The position numbers and the translations under genes are program-made. A DNA stretch of 64,000 bases from Eledone cirrhosa (lineage: Eukaryota): contig OZ024765.1 in assembly GCA_964016885.1 (NCBI GenBank), positions 248,001 through 312,000 on the forward strand. The letters are read 5' to 3'. Positions 1-60,153 of this stretch are shown piece by piece (position 1 is the first letter of the stretch; each line of letters starts with the position of its first letter). The notes under the pieces are model-generated. The model was not told where the DNA came from. It worked only from the letters and a program-made list of their open reading frames with translations, and searched no databases.

Positions 1-58
1 CACAACCTCACTTATACACATATACACATAAGTTATATTACAATAATAATAAAGAATA

Positions 59-89
<31 letters not shown>

Positions 90-228
90 TATACACACAT
101 ATACACATATACATACATACACATACATATACATACATACATACACATACATACATACACCTAAATATAAACATATATAAATACACACATACGAATAAAG
201 ACATATATTCACACATAGACACCTATAT

Positions 229-267
<39 letters not shown>

Positions 268-361
268 TATCTATATACACACACATACACATACATACAC
301 ATATATATATATATACACACATATATACACACGCACACACATACAGACACACATACACACT

Positions 362-398
<37 letters not shown>

Positions 399-1253
399 AT
401 GTGAGTGTGCGCAAATACATACATATATATACACACACACATACAAACACACACAAACACATACATATGCATACATGCACACACACACACATATATCACA
501 TAGATACGAAGATAAACATATAAATAGAGAGACATACAAATATATACAGAACCCATATACACATACATGCAAACACGCATATACATATATACATATATAC
601 ACACATATATATTCATATATACAAGCATACACATACGCACACATATATACATATACCTACACATATATATACCACACATTCACATACACGTACATATATA
701 ATACATATATATACATACATATACATACATATGTATGTACAATCATATATACACACTCAATCTTACATTCATATTTACATGCTCATATATGTATTTTTAT
801 ATCTAGAAATAAATACCAAAAAAACTATATAGACACCCATCTACCCATATATTCATACATATACACTTACAAAAACAGATGATAATAGTATGGGGGAAAG
901 GGGGGGGTTTGGAGAAGGGGATCAAAGTAAATATATGTTTCAAGAAACCTATAATATTTTCCATATCTTAATTCAATGTATGTTCTTACATATTTTCAAT
1001 GCTAGGAAATACGAAATCTATGCATCACAAAATAAAAAAGTATACCATTAATCATATGTCAACTAAACCAAAGATAGTCAACATATTGATTTCCAAGGTG
1101 TAAATTAGTTAGGTTTATAATATTTGAAGCAGAATTATGAAGTCAAACAGTAGTAGATTATTAATTACATTATAACTAAATTAAAGTTAATAATAGGGAA
1201 AAGAAACCCAAATAAAAATAAAATAAAGTATTACATCGGTAGTAGCATATAAA
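1..1253. repeat. Left arm of long inverted repeat (pairs with 4207-5459)
   Basis: Position x pairs with 5460-x. Mirrored ORF translations are identical (33..644- = 4816..5427+; 475..882+ = 4578..4985-). Confidence 0.97.
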
Positions 1254-2088
1254 TTATATGTAAACTAAGTTAAAAATTATATATTTATTTCAATAGTATA
1301 TGTTAATTAGTATATGTTAATTAGGTATACAATACATAAAGCAGATATTGTATTTCATCAATAGCATAATATAATTATATGCAAATAAAAATCAAAATTA
1401 ATACGCATACACATACATATACATACACATACACATACATATACATATACATACACATATATATATATATATATACATATATATACACACATACATACAT
1501 ATATAGTCACATAAATATACATACAGATACACATACAATACACACATATACATATACATATAGATATACATATCTTTTTCAAAAAATTTTTTGCACAGAA
1601 TATATTAACTAGGTATATATCCAAAAACACCTCCCATTCTATGATTACATGAAATTCTGCAATTCGTCTGTACAAGGATACTAATTTTAAGTAAATTAAA
1701 ATTAAAATTAAAGTTTTAGGTTGATTAAAGCTAAAACCAAATAATAAATATATTTCCAAAATGTATATTAATTAGGTCAATAATACTAAAAATTCTTTCT
1801 CCGTCATAGGATACATGATATTATTTTGTTATATTTTATCTGTAAAAGAATTATAATAAAAAAAATTTTATAATAAAAGGTTAAACTAAATTAAAAAATT
1901 ATAATAAAAGGTTAAAATAAGTTAAAATTAATCTATAAATTAAATTACTGAATATATATTAGTAATATTTAAAGGTTTTTCAAAATTAATGATTACATAA
2001 TATTTTCTCATCTGTAATAAAATATTAATTAAATTAAATTTATAGGTTAACTAACATTTAAATTAAATTAAATTCTAGAATAATGTTA

Positions 2089-4206
2089 TTAATTAGGTTT
2101 ATAATATTTAAATGTTTTTTTTAGTTTATGATTACACGATATAATTAATTCCTGTCTTTTATTTAATAAGATATCCCTAGACTTCATTATTTCAAATAGT
2201 TCTTGGGAACATAATCTACATTCCTTTCTATTATTTTGATAAGGGGTGGCTCTTTTGAGCACACTCCAGGTCAAATCATATTTTATATTTTTATTTTTAT
2301 AACTATTGATTTTTTCTGCTAGAGATGTTGTATTAGCCAGTGCGGCATTTTTAAAGCTATGTTTGTGGGTATTATACCTTGTCTTAAAATTGTTAGAGGT
2401 AGCTCCTATATATGAGCAAATAGAATCTTTAGTTTTAACATTACATTTATAGACTATGTTGTTAACAAGACAATTCCCTTTTAATGGGCAGTTTGTTTTG
2501 TTTCTACAGTTACATCCTTTCGTTAATTCTGTATTTGAGGAGATATTATTGTTAATTTGATGTACTGGTGGTATACTTATAGTTTTCTTACATTTATATG
2601 CATTATATGCACTTATATTTTGTTTTATGTTATTTGTTGTAGAATATGAGAATTTAACTGTAGACCTATTTAAGATTTGATGGTATTTGTGGTTTGGCGG
2701 GAAGTTTTTCTCAAGGATATAAAAAAATTTTTTAGCAATATTATCCTTAACTTGTAAATTAAAAGGAGCATTATACCAAGTAACTCGTCTATTACGGTTT
2801 CTATGTTGTTTATTATTTTTATTATTTTTATATGTTGTATCATGATTTTTACTAGGAGGAATAATGTTAATGATCTCACCACAACTATTTTTAGTTATAT
2901 TTGTAGATTTAGGTGTTTTATCTTTTTTATTAGGAGTTTTATTATTAATATTTATTATAGTCTTATGATGAGTAGTTTTTTGAGGGTTACTATACTTTAT
3001 ATTAGAAGATTTAGTATTTTGGGGTATACTGTGGGTGGCATTTAGGTGTGTACCTTTCATTTGGTGTTTGTTGGTAATATTATGCTGTATGTTTTCAGTA
3101 TTTTTAGTAGAAGATATATACTCTAATCTATTTTTGTGGCCACTTCTATCTAGAGCTTCATTATAAAAGGTCGCATTTTTATCAAATACATCTTGGTTAG
3201 AAGAAAGGTTAGAAATTCTAAGTGATATATTATATGCAAGGTTTTTAAGGATAGATTTAGGGTGATTAGATTGTGAGTGTATGTAATGTAAGTTTTGGTT
3301 AGGTTTATGGTAAGGTTGGTATATACCCGTAGCTAAATCTAAAGTTATATCTAGGAAATTTACTACTTTACTTGTTTTTTCAAAAGTAATATTAAGATTA
3401 TAATAGTCCTTAAGGAAAGTTCTAATATGCTTTTTGTTTTTTTCGATTTCTGAAAGGCTAAGGTTGTTAGAAAGAAGAAGACAGTCATCACGATATAAAC
3501 CACCTTTGAGGTGGGGAAAAGAGGCATTTATGTTGAAAAGGAGAAAGAGGCCCACAAGATCAGTAATTTGGGCAGAATCGCTTGAACCCATAGTAATATC
3601 AAAAAGATTACTATAAGTGTTTCTGGTCCAGTATTCATTCTGAAATTCAATAAGTGTTTGTCTAGCATGTGTAATAATGTTAATGTCATCCGAAGTTAAA
3701 TTAGATCTATTTTTAGCAAATATTAATGCTTTGTTCAGGAGTATGGGTGATATAGAAGAATAATAGTTATCTATATCAAACTGTAGGAAAGAAGCAGAAG
3801 ATTTACACCTAATATTTTTAAACCAATTAATTACCTGGGAGGTGTTTTCCCAGAGTGGTAAAATAACGTATTTTCTTATTTGTGGGATGACTCTATCTAA
3901 AATTTTTTTGCTAATTATTCCAATATCTGATTTGGAGGGACATATAAGTCTAATAGAAGGATTAGAGTTAAAGTTAGATTTGTGATCTTTCAGGTTGAAG
4001 TGTGGACTTCTCAATGCCAAAGGTTCAGTTCTATCTTCAATATTTAGTTTCTTTACTATGTTGTGTGTTTTGTTGTTGATGTTGGTGAGTGACGCATTAT
4101 TAGATTTTTTATAACTTTTTCTGAGTTCTTTATATATGAACTCATTATAATGTTCAATATCCATATGGTACAAGTTACCAGTTTTGTCCGAGTGGACATG
4201 GATTTT
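2089..4206 (-). CDS. Penelope-like element (Naiad-type) reverse transcriptase + GIY-YIG endonuclease ORF, 5'-truncated
   Basis: Uninterrupted 694-aa ORF with PLE RT motifs (QFDIDNYY, ITMGSSDS, YRDD, FLDITLDL, YHKPN..YIH.QSNHP), a CNC-x5-CPLKGNC linker, IVY...YIG..FKTRY, CRLC..E and LLNKRQE. The frame stays open upstream of the TTG at 4173 (IHVHSDKTGNLY, the PLE DK motif) until the inversion junction near 4207, so the listed start is not a real start. Confidence 0.93.
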   Translation of the reverse strand, partial: KIHVHSDKTGNLYHMDIEHYNEFIYKELRKSYKKSNNASLTNINNKTHNIVKKLNIEDRTEPLALRSPHFNLKDHKSNFNSNPSIRLICPSKSDIGIISKKILDRVIPQIRKYVILPLWENTSQVINWFKNIRCKSSASFLQFDIDNYYSSISPILLNKALIFAKNRSNLTSDDINIITHARQTLIEFQNEYWTRNTYSNLFDITMGSSDSAQITDLVGLFLLFNINASFPHLKGGLYRDDCLLLSNNLSLSEIEKNKKHIRTFLKDYYNLNITFEKTSKVVNFLDITLDLATGIYQPYHKPNQNLHYIHSQSNHPKSILKNLAYNISLRISNLSSNQDVFDKNATFYNEALDRSGHKNRLEYISSTKNTENIQHNITNKHQMKGTHLNATHSIPQNTKSSNIKYSNPQKTTHHKTIININNKTPNKKDKTPKSTNITKNSCGEIINIIPPSKNHDTTYKNNKNNKQHRNRNRRVTWYNAPFNLQVKDNIAKKFFYILEKNFPPNHKYHQILNRSTVKFSYSTTNNIKQNISAYNAYKCKKTISIPPVHQINNNISSNTELTKGCNCRNKTNCPLKGNCLVNNIVYKCNVKTKDSICSYIGATSNNFKTRYNTHKHSFKNAALANTTSLAEKINSYKNKNIKYDLTWSVLKRATPYQNNRKECRLCSQELFEIMKSRDILLNKRQELIISCNHKLKKTFKYYKPN

Positions 4207-5061
4207 TTTATATGCTACTACCGATGTAATACTTTATTTTATTTTTATTTGGGTTTCTTTTCCCTATTATTAACTTTAATTTAGTTATAATGTAATTAAT
4301 AATCTACTACTGTTTGACTTCATAATTCTGCTTCAAATATTATAAACCTAACTAATTTACACCTTGGAAATCAATATGTTGACTATCTTTGGTTTAGTTG
4401 ACATATGATTAATGGTATACTTTTTTATTTTGTGATGCATAGATTTCGTATTTCCTAGCATTGAAAATATGTAAGAACATACATTGAATTAAGATATGGA
4501 AAATATTATAGGTTTCTTGAAACATATATTTACTTTGATCCCCTTCTCCAAACCCCCCCCTTTCCCCCATACTATTATCATCTGTTTTTGTAAGTGTATA
4601 TGTATGAATATATGGGTAGATGGGTGTCTATATAGTTTTTTTGGTATTTATTTCTAGATATAAAAATACATATATGAGCATGTAAATATGAATGTAAGAT
4701 TGAGTGTGTATATATGATTGTACATACATATGTATGTATATGTATGTATATATATGTATTATATATGTACGTGTATGTGAATGTGTGGTATATATATGTG
4801 TAGGTATATGTATATATGTGTGCGTATGTGTATGCTTGTATATATGAATATATATGTGTGTATATATGTATATATGTATATGCGTGTTTGCATGTATGTG
4901 TATATGGGTTCTGTATATATTTGTATGTCTCTCTATTTATATGTTTATCTTCGTATCTATGTGATATATGTGTGTGTGTGTGCATGTATGCATATGTATG
5001 TGTTTGTGTGTGTTTGTATGTGTGTGTGTATATATATGTATGTATTTGCGCACACTCACAT

Positions 5062-5098
<37 letters not shown>

Positions 5099-5192
5099 AG
5101 TGTGTATGTGTGTCTGTATGTGTGTGCGTGTGTATATATGTGTGTATATATATATATATGTGTATGTATGTGTATGTGTGTGTATATAGATA

Positions 5193-5231
<39 letters not shown>

Positions 5232-5370
5232 ATATAGGTGTCTATGTGTGAATATATGTCTTTATTCGTATGTGTGTATTTATATATGTTTATATTTAGG
5301 TGTATGTATGTATGTGTATGTATGTATGTATATGTATGTGTATGTATGTATATGTGTATATGTGTGTATA

Positions 5371-5401
<31 letters not shown>

Positions 5402-5459
5402 TATTCTTTATTATTATTGTAATATAACTTATGTGTATATGTGTATAAGTGAGGTTGTG
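4207..5459. repeat. Right arm of long inverted repeat (pairs with 1-1253)
   Basis: tttatatgctactaccgatg at 4207 is the reverse complement of catcggtagtagcatataaa ending at 1253. Confidence 0.97.
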
Positions 5460-5624
5460 TATGTATATATACTATGTGTATATATAAGGGTAATGAAATG
5501 TATATATATATATATATATATATATATGTGCATGTCTGTATTTTATGTGTGTGTGTATATATATGTATATGTGTATGTGTGTATATGTGTATGTATATAT
5601 GCATATATGTGTACGTGTGTGTAT

Positions 5625-5672
<48 letters not shown>

Positions 5673-5782
5673 GGATGTTTGTATGTGTTTTCATGGTGGT
5701 ATGAGTGTGGGATATATATGTTTATGTATAAGTATATGTATGTGTATGTATATATATATGAGTCTATGTGTGTGTGTGTATA

Positions 5783-5827
<45 letters not shown>

Positions 5828-6595
5828 ATGTGTGTATGTGTTGCGCGTGTGTGTGTCCGTATTTTTATCTTTTTATATGTGTATGTGTATGTTCGTGTAA
5901 ATGTATGTGTGTGTATGACAGTATAGGTATGTGTGTATGTATGAATGTGTAGATATCTCTATGTGCGCGTACATGTACGTATGTGTATGTATATCTGTAT
6001 GCGTATGTACATTATATTATGTAATATATTTTATTGTTTTTATTTTTTTATTTTTCATAATTTATAGATACATTTATATTAGGCTGTCTGGTCTGACAAC
6101 CTAATACTGACCCCTCCCCCCCCCCTCCCACCTAATTTCTGTATCTTGATCTTGAAATGTGTGTACCAGTGTGTTTATGTGAGTGACTTAATTTCTATTT
6201 GCTTATGATTTTATATCCACATATATAAATGTGAGTGGGGGGTGTGTGTGTGTTTGTGTGTTCGTGGTTATGTGTATATTTATATATATACGCACATGTA
6301 TGTGTGATTATACTGATATGTGTGAGTATGAAAAAAATATATTTATATGCTTGACTACATAAGTATCATTGCGTATCTTATCAGCGCATTAAGCTTACAG
6401 AGATATTAACCTTGAAATTTTTTATTTGCATCCATCTTTTTAGTATGCACATACATATTATACACACATTATTGTAAAATGTGTGTAGGGTTTTACATGT
6501 ATATACACACACCAAACTGCTTTTTAGCCCTTTGTGTTTTCATTGGTCAATTTTGAACTGATATTTTGAATTGTTGTTATTATCAATAAATATAC

Positions 6596-6750
6596 TTCAT
6601 TATTTCTGAAGACGGCGTATATATGAGTTAGGTATGTATATTTAATCTTGATAATTTGTATAATTTTGTATAATTTTGTACATAGATCTGTTAAATATGC
6701 ATACCAATTATAGCACATATATGCCCTAGAAACGATCGTTAAATAGTGAA
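6596..6750 (+). ncRNA. Type I hammerhead ribozyme in the PLE pLTR, with very long stem II
   Basis: Stem I ttcattattt/aaatagtgaa; CTGAAGA at 6606; stem II ggcgtatat...atatatgcc plus ggtatgtatatttaa/ttaaatatgcatacc; GAAA at 6729; palindromic stem III acgatcgt; GUU cleavage triplet. Confidence 0.8.
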
Positions 6751-6929
6751 CTTTTTTTGTTTAATATAAGGAATTGTTTGTTCATTATTTGTTTAATATT
6801 TTATATACATATATATACATATACACACACACACATATGTATATACACTCACATATATGCACATACACACATATATCTATAGTGGGAGATGTATATATAT
6901 ATATATATATATATGCACACACACAGATA

Positions 6930-8300: not shown

Positions 8301-8301
<1 letters not shown>

Positions 8302-8434
8302 GGAACGAGTAGGACCCCCAACGGCTGAGCTCAAGCCGTTTCGACGGCTAATTGTGGACGTAATTATTACTACCCTAAGTATTGAGTACTTTGGTGCGTT
8401 ATGGTCCATCTGGTTCCTCACCACATTTCCTTCG

Positions 8435-8436
<2 letters not shown>
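8301..8436. mobile_element. Family A fold-back element, internally deleted
   Basis: One hairpin arm joined to the family tail; (TA)n on both sides. Confidence 0.85.
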
Positions 8437-8554: not shown

Positions 8555-8690
8555 AGTTTTACCGACCTTGAAAGGATGAAAGGTAAAGTTAACCTCGGTG
8601 GGATTTGAACTCAGAGACTAGAGAGGTGGAACTAATAGCGTAAACCACTGTATCTGACGTTCTAACGACTCCCTATATTTTCCGCCTTTG
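8555..8690 (-). mobile_element. SINE fragment
   Basis: aggatgaaaggtaaagttaacctcggtgggatttgaactcag (B-box-like on the minus strand). Confidence 0.65.
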
Positions 8691-9342: not shown

Positions 9343-9478
9343 ATAATTCGTGAGATAATTTCTCACGAGTGAAACAGTTCTAGTCCTGTAGAAGCTTTTC
9401 TATATTAAACATTTATACTCTGCTATGTATTGAGTACCTTACTTACTGTGGTTACCCCCTATTGAACCCGGAATAACA
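9343..9478 (+). mobile_element. Family F PLE-type 3' stub with half hammerhead
   Basis: tcgtgaga/tctcacga hairpin, then GAAA-cag..ctg-TA-gaagc; homologous to 32402-32560 (minus strand). Confidence 0.75.
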
Positions 9479-9565
9479 CATATATATATACACACATATA
9501 AACATATATATATATATAAATATCTATATAAATACATATATATATATATACACATATACACATAT

Positions 9566-9619
<54 letters not shown>

Positions 9620-9621
<2 letters not shown>

Positions 9622-9810
9622 CGAAGGAAATGTGGTAAGGAACCAGGTGGACCATAACGCACCAAAGTACTCAATACTTAGGGTAGTAGAGTGGGTAATA
9701 GGAACAAGTAAGACCCCGACGGCTGAGCTCAAGCCGTTTCGACGGCTAATTCTGAGTACAGAATTAGCCGTCGAAACGGCTTGAGCTCAGCCGTCGGGGT
9801 CTTACTTGTT

Positions 9811-9813
<3 letters not shown>
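9620..9813. mobile_element. Family A fold-back element
   Basis: Perfect ~57-bp arms 9698-9754/9759-9815 with loop agta, plus ~80-bp tail; (TA)n flanks. Confidence 0.92.
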
Positions 9814-9858
<45 letters not shown>

Positions 9859-9863
<5 letters not shown>

Positions 9864-9971
9864 TTATTAAAATAACAAATATAAATATTTGCTCTACTGT
9901 TCTTATATATTTCAGATATATTTATCCTTATCGCGCCCTCTTTGGATGTTAGTCTTCAAATTTATTATTAT

Positions 9972-9975
<4 letters not shown>
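9859..9975 (+). mobile_element. Family D short element in (TA)n
   Basis: Homologous to 43852-43925, 59756-59911 and 12135-12182. Confidence 0.75.
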
Positions 9976-11319: not shown

Positions 11320-11670
11320 AGGGCACAAGGGCAGCAATTTTAAGGGCTGGCAAAGTCTATTAAATCTACCCCTGTGCTTTACCTAAGGATAATATGTAAA
11401 GCTAAACTTGGTGGGATTTGAACTCAGAACGTAAAGTGTCGTAACTCTATGCTTACGCGGTCTATGAGATAAAGTACCAGTAATACACTACGAAAATTGC
11501 TGGCCTTGTGCCAAAAGTAGAAACAATTACATTTTTTAAGGGCGTTGGATTGCAGTATCTGTAAGGGTGGGACGCCATGCTTATCAGCATAGAGTTACGG
11601 CCCTTTACAGGCATAGTTCAAATCCAGCCGAGTTTAACTTTGCCTTTCATCTTTACAGGGACGATACAAC
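11320..11670. mobile_element. Cluster of SINE fragments in both orientations
   Basis: gggatttgaactcag; taaagtaccagtaatacact; aattgctggccttgtgcc; agttcaaatccagccgagtttaactttgcctttcatc. Confidence 0.7.
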
Positions 11671-12040: not shown

Positions 12041-12138
<98 letters not shown>

Positions 12139-12180
12139 GCAGCGCTTCTTTGCTTAAACTTTAATCTGTTATTTTAATAA

Positions 12181-12608: not shown

Positions 12609-12751
12609 TATATATATGCAGAAGTTATATTTAATTTGTTGGGATTCAACAAGCTTAAAAGTTTTATAACTGATATAAAGCACTCAACATGTAACTGGCG
12701 TTAATATTCAATATATTAATAAATGGAAACTATATTTATAAAACCATAACA

Positions 12752-12815
12752 ATTTTATTATATATATTTCAAGGGCAACCAAGGCAATTTTGGGTCGTTT
12801 TCATCAGATAAAATA
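12752..12815 (-). ncRNA. Type I hammerhead ribozyme (family B, inverted copy)
   Basis: Reverse complement of the 12965 motif (tttc...tcatcag). Confidence 0.72.
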
Positions 12816-12964
12816 CAAAATTTGTTTTATAAATGTTGACATACCCGAAGAAAAACAACCCTGACGGTTGAAGTTTCGCTGGATAGTCGAACGATCTCCA
12901 TCGAACCTTCAACCGTCAGGGTTGTTTTTCTACGGGTATGTCAACATTTATAAAACAAATTTTG

Positions 12965-13029
12965 TATTTTATCTGATGAAAACGCACCAAAATTGCCTTG
13001 GTTGCCCTTGAAATATATATAATAAAATA
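12965..13029 (+). ncRNA. Type I hammerhead ribozyme (family B)
   Basis: tattttat-CTGATGA-imperfect stem II (accaa/ttggt)-GAAA-tatata-TA-ataaaata. Confidence 0.75.
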
Positions 13030-13075
13030 ATTATGGTTTTATAATTATAAGTTCCATTTATTAATATATTGAATA

Positions 13076-14828: not shown

Positions 14829-15237
<409 letters not shown>

Positions 15238-19333: not shown

Positions 19334-19336
<3 letters not shown>

Positions 19337-19536
19337 AATGAGTAGGACCCCGACGGCTGAGCTCAAGCCGTTTCGACGGCTAATTCTGTACTGAATTCAG
19401 TCCAGAATTAGCCGTAGAAACAGCTTGAGCTCAGCCGTCGGGGTCCGACTCCTTCCTATTACCCACTCTACTACCCTAAGTATTGAGTACTTTGGTGGAG
19501 TTATGGTCCACCTGGTTCCTTACCACATTTCCTTCG

Positions 19537-19538
<2 letters not shown>
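19334..19538. mobile_element. Family A fold-back element
   Basis: Hairpin with a nested loop (actgaattcagt) plus tail; (TA)n flanks. Confidence 0.9.
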
Positions 19539-19590
<52 letters not shown>

Positions 19591-19668
19591 TTATATATCT
19601 ATATATTTATATATATATGAATACATATAACACGGAAGGTGTGGAAAGATACTAGGTGGACCATATAT

Positions 19669-19735
<67 letters not shown>

Positions 19736-20124: not shown

Positions 20125-20388
20125 TAACCTCCCAAATACAAGGTGATTGAAAGGTATGTCGTATCTATTTATTTATAAGACTGTTTATATTGTATTTTGT
20201 CTGAAGAAGGCATAACATATTGTTAATATGATATCCCTGAAATATATATAACGAAATAAATATGGTTTTATAAATATAGTTTCCATTTATTTAATATCAT
20301 AAATATACTCCAAATACTTGTTGAGTGCTTTTATATCAGTTATAAATATTTACTCGTTGTTAACCCAACAATTTAAATATAACTTTCC

Positions 20389-20392
<4 letters not shown>
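20125..20392 (+). mobile_element. Family B-related solo pLTR
   Basis: Shares tatggttttataaatatagtttccatttat and gttgagtgcttttatatcagttataa with the 12617-13075 element. Confidence 0.75.
20193..20258 (+). ncRNA. Type I hammerhead ribozyme
   Basis: tattttgt-CTGAAGA-agg..catatt/aatatg..cct-GAAA-tatata-TA-acgaaata. Confidence 0.78.
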
Positions 20393-22156: not shown

Positions 22157-22366
22157 TTGGCAGTATCGGTAGATGGCTAGTTGCAATGCGTTGCAGCATT
22201 GAGTTATGGCCCTTTATGATCTGAGTTCAAATCCTGCCGAGGTTAACTTTGCCTTTAAACCTTACGGGGTCGATAAAATAAAGTACCAGTCACGTACAGG
22301 GGTCGATTTAATCAACTTGCCCTCACCGAAGATTGGTGTCCTTGTGTCTATAGGAGAAACCAATAT
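22157..22366 (+). mobile_element. tRNA-type SINE, near complete
   Basis: tggcagtatcggtag (A-box-like), gagttcaaatcc (B-box), ggggtcgataaaataaagtaccagt core. Confidence 0.75.
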
Positions 22367-22507
22367 TGTGTCTGTCATTAATGAAACACATTCTTCGTTT
22401 TTAGGTTTATGGACCAGAATTCTGGTTTGGGGATACAGATATTCCCTCTTCTCACACAAAATAATCTCATAGGTTTTAAAAAGGAGCTTGATCACTTCTC
22501 ATTCTTC

Positions 22508-22545
<38 letters not shown>

Positions 22546-22551
<6 letters not shown>

Positions 22552-22620
22552 ATCAAAGTTCTTTCGTCACATATCTGTGACATCATGAGTGGTACTGTTA
22601 TGTGTGTTCTTTTATTGTTT
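22546..22620 (-). ncRNA. Degenerate hammerhead (family G)
   Basis: Minus strand: CTCATGA-t-gtcaca-gata-tgtgac-GAAA-gaactttgatagacTA. Confidence 0.55.
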
Positions 22621-22730
22621 CACTTTGCCTTTCATCCTTACAGGGTCGATAAATTAAAGTACCAGTAATGCACTGGGGTCGATTTATTCGACTTCCTCTC
22701 ATCCAAAATTGCTGGCCTTGTGCCTACATA
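22621..22730 (+). mobile_element. SINE 3' fragment
   Basis: ctttgcctttcatccttacagggtcgataaattaaagtaccagt. Confidence 0.72.
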
Positions 22731-23087
22731 AGAGCAGGATACATGTACCCCCTTCACACCAAACTTAAAAGGGTTTACCACAATATTTTATGTCATTAAT
22801 GAAAATCACTCCCTGTTTTTAGGTTTTTGGACAGGAATTCCGCTATGGTTATACATATTTTCCCCGCCCTCACATAAAAGAATCTCATAGGGTTTAAAAA
22901 GGAGGCATGATCATTTTCTATTCTTCTAACTAATCGATAAATGAAAGAAACACAATCAATAGAACGGCAAAGAGATGATATTGCTTAAGATGTCGAGTTT
23001 AAGTCAAGCACCAATAGTTATGACGAAATTTCATGATTGATTTTCTTTCTTCCTTTTTCTCTCTCACTCTCTCTAACTCCTAATATA

Positions 23088-32401: not shown

Positions 32402-32560
32402 TTATCCTGGGTTCAATCGGAGGTAACCACAGTAAGTAAAATACTCAATACATAGCAGAGTATAAGTATTTAATATAGAAATGGCTTCTACAGGACTAGA
32501 ACTGTTTCATTAGAAGGAAATCATCAGGAAACTGACTGTCAATTTATTATGGGTGTATGG
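32402..32560 (-). mobile_element. Family F pLTR with hammerhead core (32485-32531)
   Basis: Minus strand: tttc-CTGATGA-(decayed stem II)-GAAA-cagttctagtcctg-TA-gaag. Confidence 0.72.
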
Positions 32561-32640
32561 TGGCATATATATATATATATATATAACGGCGATGAATTAG
32601 TTTTGCGAGGTTTTTGATATGGAATCGTGTGTCGAAACAA

Positions 32641-32787: not shown

Positions 32788-32796
32788 GCGGTGGAT

Positions 32797-32978
32797 TGGC
32801 AGTATCGGTAGAGGGTCGGACGCCATGCTTTCCAGCATAGTTACGTCCCTCTACGATCTGAGTTCAAATCCAGCCGAGGTTGACTTTGCCTTTCATCCTT
32901 ACGGGGTCGATAAAATAAAAGTATCAGTAATGCACTGGGTAATTGCTGGCCTTGTGCCTAAAGTAGAAACAATTATTA
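32797..32978 (+). mobile_element. tRNA-type SINE
   Basis: Same A-box-like, B-box and core as the 22157 copy. Confidence 0.78.
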
Positions 32979-34594: not shown

Positions 34595-34731
34595 TGTTTT
34601 ACCACTGGGTAGAATTAGTATGCATCTATTACGCAACCTGATCACTGAAATGTGCATAATGTTTGCGGAAAAAATTAATGAAATTCAACATATTTGACCT
34701 CCTGTCATTTCACTTTATAATATATATATAA

Positions 34732-34780
34732 TAGCCGTCGAAACGGCTTGAGCTCTGCCGTCGGAGTCATACATTGTCCT
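34732..34780 (+). mobile_element. Family A single-arm stub
   Basis: tagccgtcgaaacggcttgagctctgccgtcgg. Confidence 0.75.
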
Positions 34781-36005: not shown

Positions 36006-36144
36006 TATATATAAGTGTGTGTGTGTGTATACACACACAATAATATTGATGCATATTTTATATACGAGAAACTAAATATCTGAGATCTACTAGACGAGAA
36101 AAAAATTGAGACTTCATGAAGCATAGCAAGAGAGAAAAATATTT

Positions 36145-36830
36145 GGCGGCTGTTTATTGCGGTAGTGTAAGGTGTCGGTTCGTGTTGGCGGTTTGTGGCG
36201 GCGATTTATGGTGATGGTGTAGGGTATTGGTTCGTGTTGGCGGTTTATGGCGGCGATTTATTGCGTTGGTGTAGGGTGTGGGTTTACTGCGGTGGTGTAG
36301 GCTGTTGGTTTATGGTGGCGGTTTATAGCGGTGGTGTAGGGTGTGGGTTTACTGCGGTGGTGTAGGCTGTTGGTTTATGGTGGCGGTTTATTGCGGTGGT
36401 GTAGGGTGTGGGTTTATTGCGGTGGTGTAGGCTGTTGGTTTATGGTGGCGGTTTATTGCGGTGGTGTAGGGTGTGGGTTTATTGCGGTGGTGTAGGCTGT
36501 TGGTTTATGGTGGCGGTTTATTGCGGTGGTGTAGGGTGTGGGTTTATTGCGGTGGTGTAGGCTGTTGGTTTATGGTGGCAGTTTATAGCGGTGGTGTAGG
36601 GTGTGGGTTTATTGCGGTGGTGTAGGCTGTTGGTTTATGGTGGCGGTTTATTGCGGTGGTGTAGGGTGTGGGTTTATTGCGGTGGTGTAGGCTGTTGGTT
36701 TATGGTGGCGGTTTATTGCGGTGGTGCAGGGTGTGGGTTTATTGCGGTGGTGTAGGCTGTTGGTTTATGGTGGCGGTTTATTGCGGTGGTGTAGGGTGTA
36801 GGTTCAGGGAGGAGGTTTATGGCGGCGCTA
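36145..36830. repeat. G-rich minisatellite, 65-bp unit x8 (36281-36800) with degenerate flanks
   Basis: Unit starts at 36281, 36346, 36411, 36476, 36541, 36606, 36671 and 36736. Confidence 0.92.
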
Positions 36831-37106: not shown

Positions 37107-37283
37107 ACAAAGACGGTGTGGCAAGGAACCAGATGGACCATCACGCACTAGAGTACTCAATAGTTAGGGTAGTAGAGTGGGTAATAGGAAAAGAGTGAGG
37201 ACCCCGACGGCTGAGTTCTAGTCGCCTAGATCCGGAATTAGCTGTCGAAAAGGCCGGACCTCAGCCGTCGGGGACCTGATTCT

Positions 37284-37287
<4 letters not shown>
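37107..37287. mobile_element. Family A, diverged older copy
   Basis: Same tail, decayed hairpin. Confidence 0.8.
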
Positions 37288-37337
<50 letters not shown>

Positions 37338-37339
<2 letters not shown>

Positions 37340-37547
37340 CGAAGGAAATGTGGTAAGGAACCAGGTGGAGCATAACGCACCAAAGTACTCAATACTTAGG
37401 GTAGTAGAGTGGGTAATAGGAACAAGTAAGACCCCGACGGCTGAGCTCAAGCCATTTCGACGGCTATTTCGGGTCCAGAATTCTGGACTTTTGTCCAGAA
37501 TTAGCCGTCGAAACGGCTTGAGCTCAGCCGTCGGGGTCTTACTTGTT

Positions 37548-37550
<3 letters not shown>
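37338..37550. mobile_element. Family A fold-back element with extended nested centre
   Basis: Centre gtccagaattctggacttttgtccagaatt. Confidence 0.9.
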
Positions 37551-39976: not shown

Positions 39977-40200
39977 TCAAGGTTCAATGAATAAATCAAA
40001 GAATGGGTTTTACAATAGATTGGAAGCACTCAACTGTTGGTTTATATATATATATATAGATAGATATATAGATATTTGGTTTATATATATATATATATAT
40101 AGATATATAGATATTTGGTTTATATATATATATATAGACATATATATATTTGGTTTATATATATATATTTATATATATATACATATATATATATATATTT

Positions 40201-43851: not shown

Positions 43852-43921
43852 TGCTCTAGGGTTCTTATATATTTGATATATATTTATCCTTAGCGAGCCC
43901 TCTTTGGATTTTAGTCTTCAA

Positions 43922-43925
<4 letters not shown>
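43852..43925 (+). mobile_element. Family D fragment followed by (TTA)n
   Basis: Homology to 9890-9965. Confidence 0.7.
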
Positions 43926-44012: not shown

Positions 44013-44090
<78 letters not shown>

Positions 44091-44280
44091 CCCTTCGAAA
44101 AGGTCTTTCCAATATTACCTGTGCTTTACATTTATTGGTCAAAGACCTCTACCCATCCTCAAAATAATCATCATCATCACCAACCACCAGTTACCATATA
44201 AATACCACCGTAATGAATGCCAGTCCGCATTCCTCATGATTGTGATTTCCTGTGTATGAAACCGTTCTAGTCCTGTAGAT

Positions 44281-44317
<37 letters not shown>

Positions 44318-44877: not shown

Positions 44878-44880
<3 letters not shown>

Positions 44881-45003
44881 AACAATTAAGACCCCGACGG
44901 CTGAGCTCAATCCGTTTCGACGGCTAATTCTGTACAGAATTACCCTAAGCATTGAGTACTTTGGTGGTTATGGTCCACCTGGTTCCTTACCACATTTCCT
45001 TCG

Positions 45004-45006
<3 letters not shown>
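44878..45006. mobile_element. Family A element, internally deleted
   Basis: One arm plus centre aattctgtacagaatt joined to the tail. Confidence 0.85.
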
Positions 45007-46752: not shown

Positions 46753-46774
46753 TATATACATATATATTTATAAT

Positions 46775-47042
46775 ATAATTTAGAGTTTACACTCAATGGG
46801 GTAATTTACAATTATTTTAGCTCTAAGGATCACTTCTGAGCAGTATAAATTAGTATATGATAAACACTTACGTGTTTTTGTTGTAATTGACAATAAAATA
46901 GCTAGAATGAAATATCTTAATTCAAATACATATAGTCAGCCTGTGTCGATCTAAAAAATAATAAATCAATACTCACAAACACAATCGGCAAAAGGCCTCT
47001 TATTGTCAATTACAACAAAAACACGTAAGTGTTTATCATATA
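46775..47042. mobile_element. Short element with 43-bp inverted repeats (46854-46896/47000-47042)
   Basis: Perfect inverted repeat around a ~100-bp spacer, tail with acactcaat, (TA)n flanks. Confidence 0.7.
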
Positions 47043-47122
47043 TTAATATATATTTATATATATATGTATATATATATGATCTATAAGTATATATATATAT
47101 ATATATATATATCTATATATAT

Positions 47123-47492
<370 letters not shown>

Positions 47493-49821: not shown

Positions 49822-50122
49822 ATGAACGAATACCACAAAACACTATCTGAATTTCTAACGACCCTGTCAATTCGCCGCCGCCATACAACTGGTACTTGTT
49901 CATATACCTTGTATGAATGAATGGTAAAGTTGACCTAGACAGGATTTGAACTCAGAGAGCAGAGATCCCGAACGAATACTACAAAACATTCTATTCGAAT
50001 TTATAACGACCCTGCTAATTCGCCATTATACCAGTTAAGTACTGAGGGCTTAATTATACTGTAATTTTCTTTCCCCTAAATTTACTGATAGAAATTCTGT
50101 TAGGCTTATTTCAAACGTAGAA
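49822..50122. mobile_element. Rearranged SINE fragments
   Basis: aggatttgaactcag; duplicated gaacgaatac..taacgaccctg..aattcgcc. Confidence 0.6.
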
Positions 50123-55360: not shown

Positions 55361-55400
<40 letters not shown>

Positions 55401-55446
55401 CGAAAGAAGTGTGGTAAGGAATCAGATTTGCATATATATATACATA

Positions 55447-59388: not shown

Positions 59389-59506
<118 letters not shown>

Positions 59507-59680
59507 TATATAAGAACAAAAGATGGTTAAAAGAGTTCCATGTATTTTATTATGCGCATTTCAAAAACAAATATCATCATGCAATAATATTTGTGTTTTC
59601 ATCAGATAAAATAGGAAGAGATGATATTAAGGTTAAAAAACACTTGTGGATAGTGCAGTTTTAAATCAACATATCATTAT

Positions 59681-59755
<75 letters not shown>

Positions 59756-59758
<3 letters not shown>

Positions 59759-59906
59759 ATAATAATAAATTTGCAGACTAAAATCCAAAGAAGGCTCGAT
59801 AAGGATAAATATATATCAAATATAAAAAAACCGTAGAGCAAATATTTATTATCCTGTTAAGGGTGAAAGCAGCGATTCTGTGCTTAAACTTTAATCTGTT
59901 ATTTTA

Positions 59907-59960: not shown

Positions 59961-59962
<2 letters not shown>

Positions 59963-60153
59963 CGAAGGAAATGTGGTAAGGAACCAGGTGGACCATAACG
60001 CACCAAAGTACTCAATACTTAGGGTAGTAGAGTGGGTAATAGGAACAAGTAAGACCCCGACGGCTGAGCTCAAGCCGTTTCGACGGCTAATTCTGGACTG
60101 GAATTAGCCGTCGAGACGGCTTGAGTTCAGCCGTCGGGGTCTTACTTGTTCCT
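59961..60153. mobile_element. Family A fold-back element
   Basis: Hairpin plus tail, (TA)n flanks. Confidence 0.92.

Follow-up and report, generated by a model that had tools for sequence, protein, structure and literature searches.

Short head-to-head palindromes in the Eledone cirrhosa genome as probable truncated ends of a hammerhead-bearing Penelope-like retroelement

The stretch of Eledone cirrhosa DNA analysed here (64 kb, hereafter the window) contains a short dispersed repeat, family A, which lies in (TA)n and consists of 54-bp arms with an 80-nt tail on one arm and without CTGANGA. A BLAST search of the 64-kb window with positions 9620-9813 returned eight main copies and additional stubs, including all ten places named in an earlier note on this DNA (copies at 8301, 9620, 19334, 37107, 37338, 44878, 47123 and 59961; stubs at 34732 and 55399). 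Alternating TA of at least 10 nt flanks seven of the eight main copies on both sides, and runs of this length make up 20% of the bases of the window. The copy at 37107 has 5 nt of TA on its left and 51 nt on its right, the latter filling the gap to the copy at 37339. No RT or GIY-YIG ORF is present in the family A units (126-211 bp), and none of the ORFs in the 64-kb window is linked to the family.

The anatomy is clearest in the copy at 9620. Its 80-nt tail (9621..9700, minus strand) lies on the long-arm side only, contains the TTGAGTAC motif common to families D, E and F described below, and ends in (TA)n. The long arm (9701..9754, sense on the minus strand) comprises a putative stem II 3' strand, GAAA, stem III, GUC and a putative stem I 3' strand. 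The head-to-head junction is marked by a centre reading AGTA (9755..9758), one 10-nt deletion away from the centre of the 19334 copy. The short arm (9759..9812, plus strand) carries GAAA at 9773-9776, stem III with a palindromic loop at 9777-9793 and TC at 9794-9795, and ends in CC followed by (TA)n. It is a perfect inverted copy of the long arm, so that the two form a 54-bp inverted repeat, which is not terminal: the tail lies outside it. The earlier note had described a tail of about 80 bp on one arm only and a short arm that stops at tcctat and merges into TA, and both descriptions were borne out, as 80 nt extend beyond the long arm and the short arm stops at the point where the long arm continues CC-TAT. 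Folded as DNA, this copy reached -81.1 kcal/mol (z -21.6), a stability matched by none of 200 shuffles, and a single family A arm folded like its shuffles (z about 0).

Two full arms, pointing outwards, were found in five of the eight main copies (9620, 19334, 37338, 47123 and 59961), and the length of these units is nearly constant at 189-211 bp (n=5). Subfamily A2 includes the copy at 19335..19537 (minus strand, in long-arm-first orientation), whose centre is the longest of the simple ones, at 14 nt, and includes an 8-nt palindrome, and the copy at 47124..47313 (plus), which has a 2-nt centre. Subfamily A1 includes the copies at 37339..37549 (plus), with a patchwork centre holding an extra 16-nt palindrome, and at 59962..60152 (plus). 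One arm is shortened in the other three. In the copy at 44879..45004 (minus) the short arm is complete, the long arm is reduced to 8 nt and the tail is shortened; the A2 copy at 8302..8436 (minus) has a full short arm and a shortened tail but has lost the long arm, and a diverged copy of a third subfamily at 37107..37287 (plus) has a long arm broken near the centre. The earlier description of the copies as palindromes is thus accurate for the five, and not for 44878 and 8301, where the long arm is nearly gone, or for 37107. The stubs are a short arm between TA runs (34731..34779, plus), a tail end after (TA)n (55400..55425, plus) and a diverged tail end that was absent from the earlier list (19631..19670, plus; BLAST E 0.01).

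In a full family A arm, C-GAAA is followed by a 4-bp stem whose loop is palindromic and then by TC and GGGGTC; the 9620 copy has this motif as C-GAAA-CGGC-TTGAGCTCA-GCCG-TC-GGGGTC. This had been interpreted as the 3' half of a hammerhead with a GUC site, lacking CUGANGA. An exact CTGANGA was found on neither strand in any of the nine family A stretches scanned, which agrees with the second part of that interpretation; the CUGANGA core and helices I-III of an active hammerhead are not all present in family A. As to the first part, the motif is there, and Rfam reported no hammerhead: it gave no match at the gathering score in the window, and only generic hairpins below that score in 9600-9830. 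Rfam is blind here, because it also missed a control with a complete hammerhead core (core 59551-59605; region 59500-59680). A descriptor scan for complete hammerheads returned two in the window, neither of them in family A, and its helix rules made it miss those of families F and E. The earlier note had also called for a parent with CTGANGA; no family A parent with CTGANGA or an ORF was seen in the window. A hammerhead origin of family A is therefore suggested by the motif and by analogy with known elements.

Complete hammerheads in a similar arrangement occur in family F, a head-to-head palindrome at 12619..13075 with a CTGATGA...GAAA hammerhead in both arms (12807 on the minus strand, 12973 on the plus strand). 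It has an 89-nt tail on the left arm only, its short arm runs into (TA)n, and its tail contains TTGAGT(A/G)C as does that of family A. Single-armed relatives of family F with complete cores lie between TA runs at 20127-20391 and 59500-59683. The family E copy at 32402..32564 (minus) has CTGATGA (32527), a 5-bp stem I around GAAA-CAG-loop-CTG-TA and a degenerate stem II. Family E aligned weakly with family A (score 33; 1 and 3 of 500 shuffles), the likeness lying in the tail. Among the family E copies (9346-9479, 32402-32564 and 44088-44282), the start of one coincides with the base of a 10-bp stem II, a core-like word lies upstream in two, and one ends without a tail. Family D (14973-15182) shows the arm-plus-tail geometry in (TA)n. 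It was considered as a second core-less example and rejected, since a CTGANGA word occurs in each of its arms, 18 nt ahead of GAAA; it has no clear stem I.

Family B, at 1..6810, is a 5'-truncated and probably Penelope-like element with an ORF at 2089-4233 (minus). At about 4207 it is fused head to head to a copy of its 3' UTR that is inverted and likewise 5'-truncated. The inverted copy ends in a hammerhead with a long stem II (6606-6740), and the stem II region of about 115 nt folds strongly (z -5.4). The arms form a 1253-bp inverted repeat, 100% identical and 2953 bp apart, which was the exception in the output of a generic repeat finder that microsatellites otherwise swamped across the window. 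The frame is open for 714 aa, with RT-type motifs, a Cys-rich linker and a GIY-YIG-like region. Searches with this protein gave nothing from Pfam and nothing significant from PDB, and the Penelope-like assignment is drawn from the motifs and from relatives that have a GIY-YIG domain. Family B is a very young insertion, and the named relatives of its protein include those of the molluscs Solemya velum and Argonauta hians, which together with the TA richness suggests a molluscan host. As a parent of family A it was rejected for want of sequence likeness (458 of 500 shuffles aligned as well), and family A showed no alignment beyond chance with families B, C, D or F.

The layout of family A matches that of insertions left by Penelope-like elements (PLEs) with an endonuclease (EN+), for which an overview describes microsatellite or (TA)n targets, a 5'-truncated copy in inverted orientation and a tail at just one of the ends (PMC8557442). 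All three are seen in family A: an inverted, head-to-head truncated copy, a one-end tail and an AT-rich/(TA)n target. Palindromes at the head-to-head junction are also described for PLEs, and Pen2a_Av and other inverted pLTR insertions share with family A the head-to-head order, the one-end tail, the junction palindromes and the AT-rich/(TA)n setting (PMC3846280; overview PMC8557442). Family A differs from the inverted pLTR insertions reported there in having no ORF or element body, arms of only about 54 bp and a tail of 80 nt instead of 30-40. Its junction is, unlike theirs, nearly fixed inside putative stem II, and a target duplication is unreadable in (TA)n. In PLE hammerheads, helix II is long and helix III palindromic (PMC4209133). 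Family A has in common with them C-GAAA, a helix III with a palindromic loop, a UH triplet (GUC) and a long helix II strand, but has neither CUGANGA nor the 5' strand of helix I and is not active as it stands. Its helix III (4-5 bp, 9-nt loop) exceeds the minimal metazoan form given in the same text (PMC4209133). Non-LTR retrozymes, as presented in bioRxiv 10.64898/2026.07.22.740005, are likewise short and non-coding and derive, as family A probably does, from PLE pseudo-LTRs, but they are direct tandem units with a complete type I hammerhead each, whereas family A is inverted, dispersed and core-less. A classification of family A as a retrozyme was rejected on these grounds, and one as an autonomous PLE was rejected since it encodes neither RT nor GIY-YIG endonuclease.

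Together, these features suggest that family A probably represents the pseudo-LTR ends of a hammerhead-bearing PLE, joined head to head after extreme 5' truncation. Penelope identity is well supported by anatomy, and because a family A parent was not seen, the link is made through this anatomy and a short motif picked post hoc. Family A is a real and very abundant new family representing a known kind of insertion scar, and it is set apart by a junction inside putative stem II, which removes the ribozyme core. A published solo palindromic or MITE-like PLE family was not found in the open literature, and Repbase, Dfam, subscription journals or supplements may hold family A. The accessible portion of an octopus repeat annotation contains no description of it that we could find (PMC13282606).

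The abundance and the ends of family A were assessed in sequencing reads from four of the 19 listed runs, aligned to one copy (9621-9811). No RNA run was listed, and runs X5 and X7-X16 (shares 0.11-0.39) were left out of the evidence. Two RAD runs had 23,519 of 12,467,656 and 24,288 of 12,785,554 reads on family A (0.19%), a fraction that is not a copy number, as the RAD enzyme cuts AATT inside the element and the centres are under-sampled. Run X1 had 18,608 contigs on family A, and the two records in run X6 are probably stray DNA. An exact 22-mer of family A matched no locus in metagenome contigs. The short-arm end was fixed at 9698-9701, with 3759 and 3429 reads going from 9698 into (AT)n. 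Past the edge of the centre, the agreement among loose read ends fell to 0.47-0.56, indicating that the centres are heterogeneous, and the first few letters of reads past the long arm matched those of the 19334 centre. Fifteen of 63 joints were displayed, and 12 of these were skips from 9659-9739 to 9754-9775, nine of them landing at 9754-9760. Six of the 12 start inside the tail and are therefore unambiguous losses of the long arm (at least six in genomic contigs), a class that comprises two of the eight copies in the window (44878 and 8301). Because the reference is palindromic, losses of the short arm are difficult to detect on it, and the asymmetry of the joints partly reflects the test itself. 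Non-palindromic continuations were seen in 903 reads before 9765 (run X17) and in one X6 contig after 9757; both are absent from the window, and neither has CTGANGA in the 30 visible letters.

The mechanism that we favour joins Penelope identity to twin priming with head-to-head joining, and we assign the two together a probability of about 0.55. The observed geometry would be produced by the following steps of synthesis. The GIY-YIG nuclease of the element would cut both strands of (TA)n. One DNA end would then prime at the far end of the tail and the other at an inner site 80 nt nearer the ribozyme, leaving a tail on one arm. Synthesis of both cDNAs would usually end before the CUGANGA core is reached, close to the top of the long stem II, where either the template RNA begins or its structure halts the enzyme. 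Their 3' ends would then be joined head to head by means of short words that are self-complementary, and the variable centres would come from small losses or templated patches; a tail-primed copy that stopped early would give a short arm and tail without a long arm. The product lacks an ORF and a ribozyme core and, with its motif locked in a hairpin, is predicted not to self-cleave.

A close precedent for the first steps is Poseidon of Anolis carolinensis. This purified PLE cuts and extends both target strands in vitro and starts at two RNA sites bracketing the tail (PMC11167929). Two fixed ends bracketing the tail and an AT-rich target are common to this system and family A; the Poseidon RT start lacks homology to the target and is located in an AC-rich stem-loop, whereas family A has a CT-rich tail and 3 nt of TA-like sequence at its inner end. 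Both outer ends of family A are fixed, and they may correspond to such RT starts. Two starts bracketing the tail would explain both fixed ends without foldback of a cDNA, and, as the two cDNAs would be independent and either may be the shorter, copies that lost the long arm would arise directly. Twin priming was ranked first because neither feature needs foldback, although the long-arm-lost class could alternatively stem from later hairpin-guided deletion. Parallels within the window are family F, which has the same geometry with complete hammerheads, and family B, an ORF-bearing head-to-head insertion. Family A offers material for the question of how inverted ends and tails form in PLEs (PMC8557442; PMC11167929). 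Its copies are numerous, short and young, with outer ends that are fixed, and fall into three subfamilies, which makes twin priming, foldback and inheritance separable from a genome assembly alone.

Comparison of the arms bears on all three. The five two-armed copies were compared over 53 columns, of which 14 are variable. Two columns are changed in both arms, each in both A2 copies, and mark this subfamily. The earlier note had proposed that the arms of a copy share private variants (for example caagtaag vs cgagtagg); these variants, read here as caagtaag and gagtagg, proved to be common to several copies and serve as subfamily markers, and none of the 14 variable columns in the five copies has a variant that is private to one copy yet present in both arms. 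The pairing of arms within a copy was no closer than any pairing within a subfamily (12 of 120 permutations). The arms differ at 2-4 positions in four of the five copies and are identical in 9620. The diagnostic bases of each of the three subfamilies are present in both arms; the third subfamily is also seen in the reads, with its bases in both arms at 37107 and in loose read ends at 9704 and 9801. Because of this, the palindrome was either remade at least three times or its arms were homogenised, and remaking more than once is supported.

Ranked second, and unlikely in our judgement, is an inherited palindromic master. A Penelope pseudo-LTR would have given rise to the hairpin on a few occasions, one for each subfamily, and the whole 190-nt unit would then have been retrotransposed in trans, with tip deletions varying the centres. 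Several observations point to such an inherited two-armed unit. The centres of 9620, 47123, 59961 and 44878, four of the six others, are each one exact, zero-mismatch deletion away from the 19334 centre. The five centres quoted in the earlier note are as written, and the idea that each copy has its own centre has to be qualified by this relatedness. In addition, 47123 and 19334 have in common, on the long arm only, a base (column 50) that is rare in the reads (less than 2% in runs X17 and X1, with no C>G change listed). The near-constant unit length and the agreement of reads past the long arm with the first letters of the 19334 centre also fit an inherited unit, as does a centre-side A in three of five informative short arms and none of four long arms, numbers too few for significance. 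The centres of 37338 and 8301, by contrast, are not derivable from that of 19334, the low agreement of reads past the centre argues against a single inherited tip, and the subfamily bases in both arms would require three origins or arm conversion. The deletion-related centres fit inheritance with tip deletion, but equally fit junctions between copies of one template that stopped at slightly different places, as a template with fixed upstream sequence also gives a nested series of junctions.

A stronger version, which we consider slightly less likely, is that family A is a self-propagating, ribozyme-less 'retro-MITE'. A Penelope enzyme acting in trans would copy the palindrome master as an entire hairpin RNA, and the family would have reached a density of about one copy per 8 kb; its centre would erode by deletion and its arm differences would be inherited. 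If so, the PLE enzyme would need only the tail and not the hammerhead, and family A, made out of the integration scar of the element itself, would be a PLE counterpart of SINEs. Inheritance of the palindrome in any form would make family A a non-autonomous PLE unit of a new type, able to spread in the absence of its ribozyme.

The third-ranked explanation, foldback at each insertion, appears improbable. Here one tail-primed cDNA would fold back at or near stem II and copy itself up to the CC-TAT site. Self-priming at PLE palindromes has already been proposed in print, in the Discussion of PMC3846280. The small palindromes in the centres (8 nt in 19334, 16 nt in 37338 and 18 nt in 44878), the identical arms of 9620, the 3 nt of TA-like sequence at which the short arm stops and the 100% identity of the family B arms over 1253 bp are all consistent with it. 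However, foldback would copy the short arm from the long arm, and so the long-arm-lost copies 44878 and 8301 and the contig joints (at least six) would need a second deletion. Snap-back at the native stem also predicts one constant centre and not many, and the fixed short-arm end matches a second in vitro RT start site without foldback (PMC11167929). No variant is private to a copy and present in both its arms, though few would be expected. What is supported of the earlier reading is an origin from the hammerhead-bearing RNA end of a retroelement and a palindrome remade more than once; snap-back at stem II at each insertion is not shown, given the lack of private both-arm variants, the related yet variable centres, the copies that lost the long arm and a CTGANGA parent that was not seen.

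A far less probable alternative is an ordinary DNA element, either a MITE or a Helitron/Helentron derivative, with the GAAA...GUC motif present by chance. Like MITEs, family A is short, non-coding, high in copy number and strongly hairpin-forming and occupies TA sites, and the lack of CUGANGA and of an Rfam hammerhead would be expected. Unlike in MITEs, the inverted repeat is not terminal, the centre is variable and the 80-nt tail lies outside on one side. Helitrons and Helentrons have 5'-TC and 3'-CTRR ends with a subterminal hairpin, and family A has neither end in either orientation. Truncation proceeds from the centre outwards with both outer ends fixed, and the tail motif and geometry are common to the complete-hammerhead family F. 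An assembly or long-read artefact has a negligible chance: palindromes next to microsatellites are hard to assemble, but the arms differ in four of five two-armed copies and short-read contigs cross the centre (9666-9786, depth 22).

The word TGAGT(A/G)C occurs in the tails of families A, D, E and F (for each, 10-15 of 2000 shuffles, with a motif picked after inspection) and is absent from the ends of families B and C. In the four otherwise unlike families that have it, the longer form TTGAGT(A/G)(C/T) is placed 30-65 nt ahead of the TA junction, and it occurs also at 40033, 46796 and 60259 (minus). It is a candidate binding signal for the PLE protein. An island of 296 nt between TA runs (46759-47054) has a 43-bp inverted repeat and the tail word and is probably another such family. 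A short dispersed family between TA and TAA repeats (9881-9972, 43854-43923, 59758-59906 and 12135-12176) twice adjoins family A copies. The window also contains a family of SINE-like dispersed repeats that has no relation to family A (8556-8669, 11384-11669, 22157-22929, 32796-32975 and 49824-50024) and a tandem array with 13-nt and 65-nt periodicity (36087-36830).
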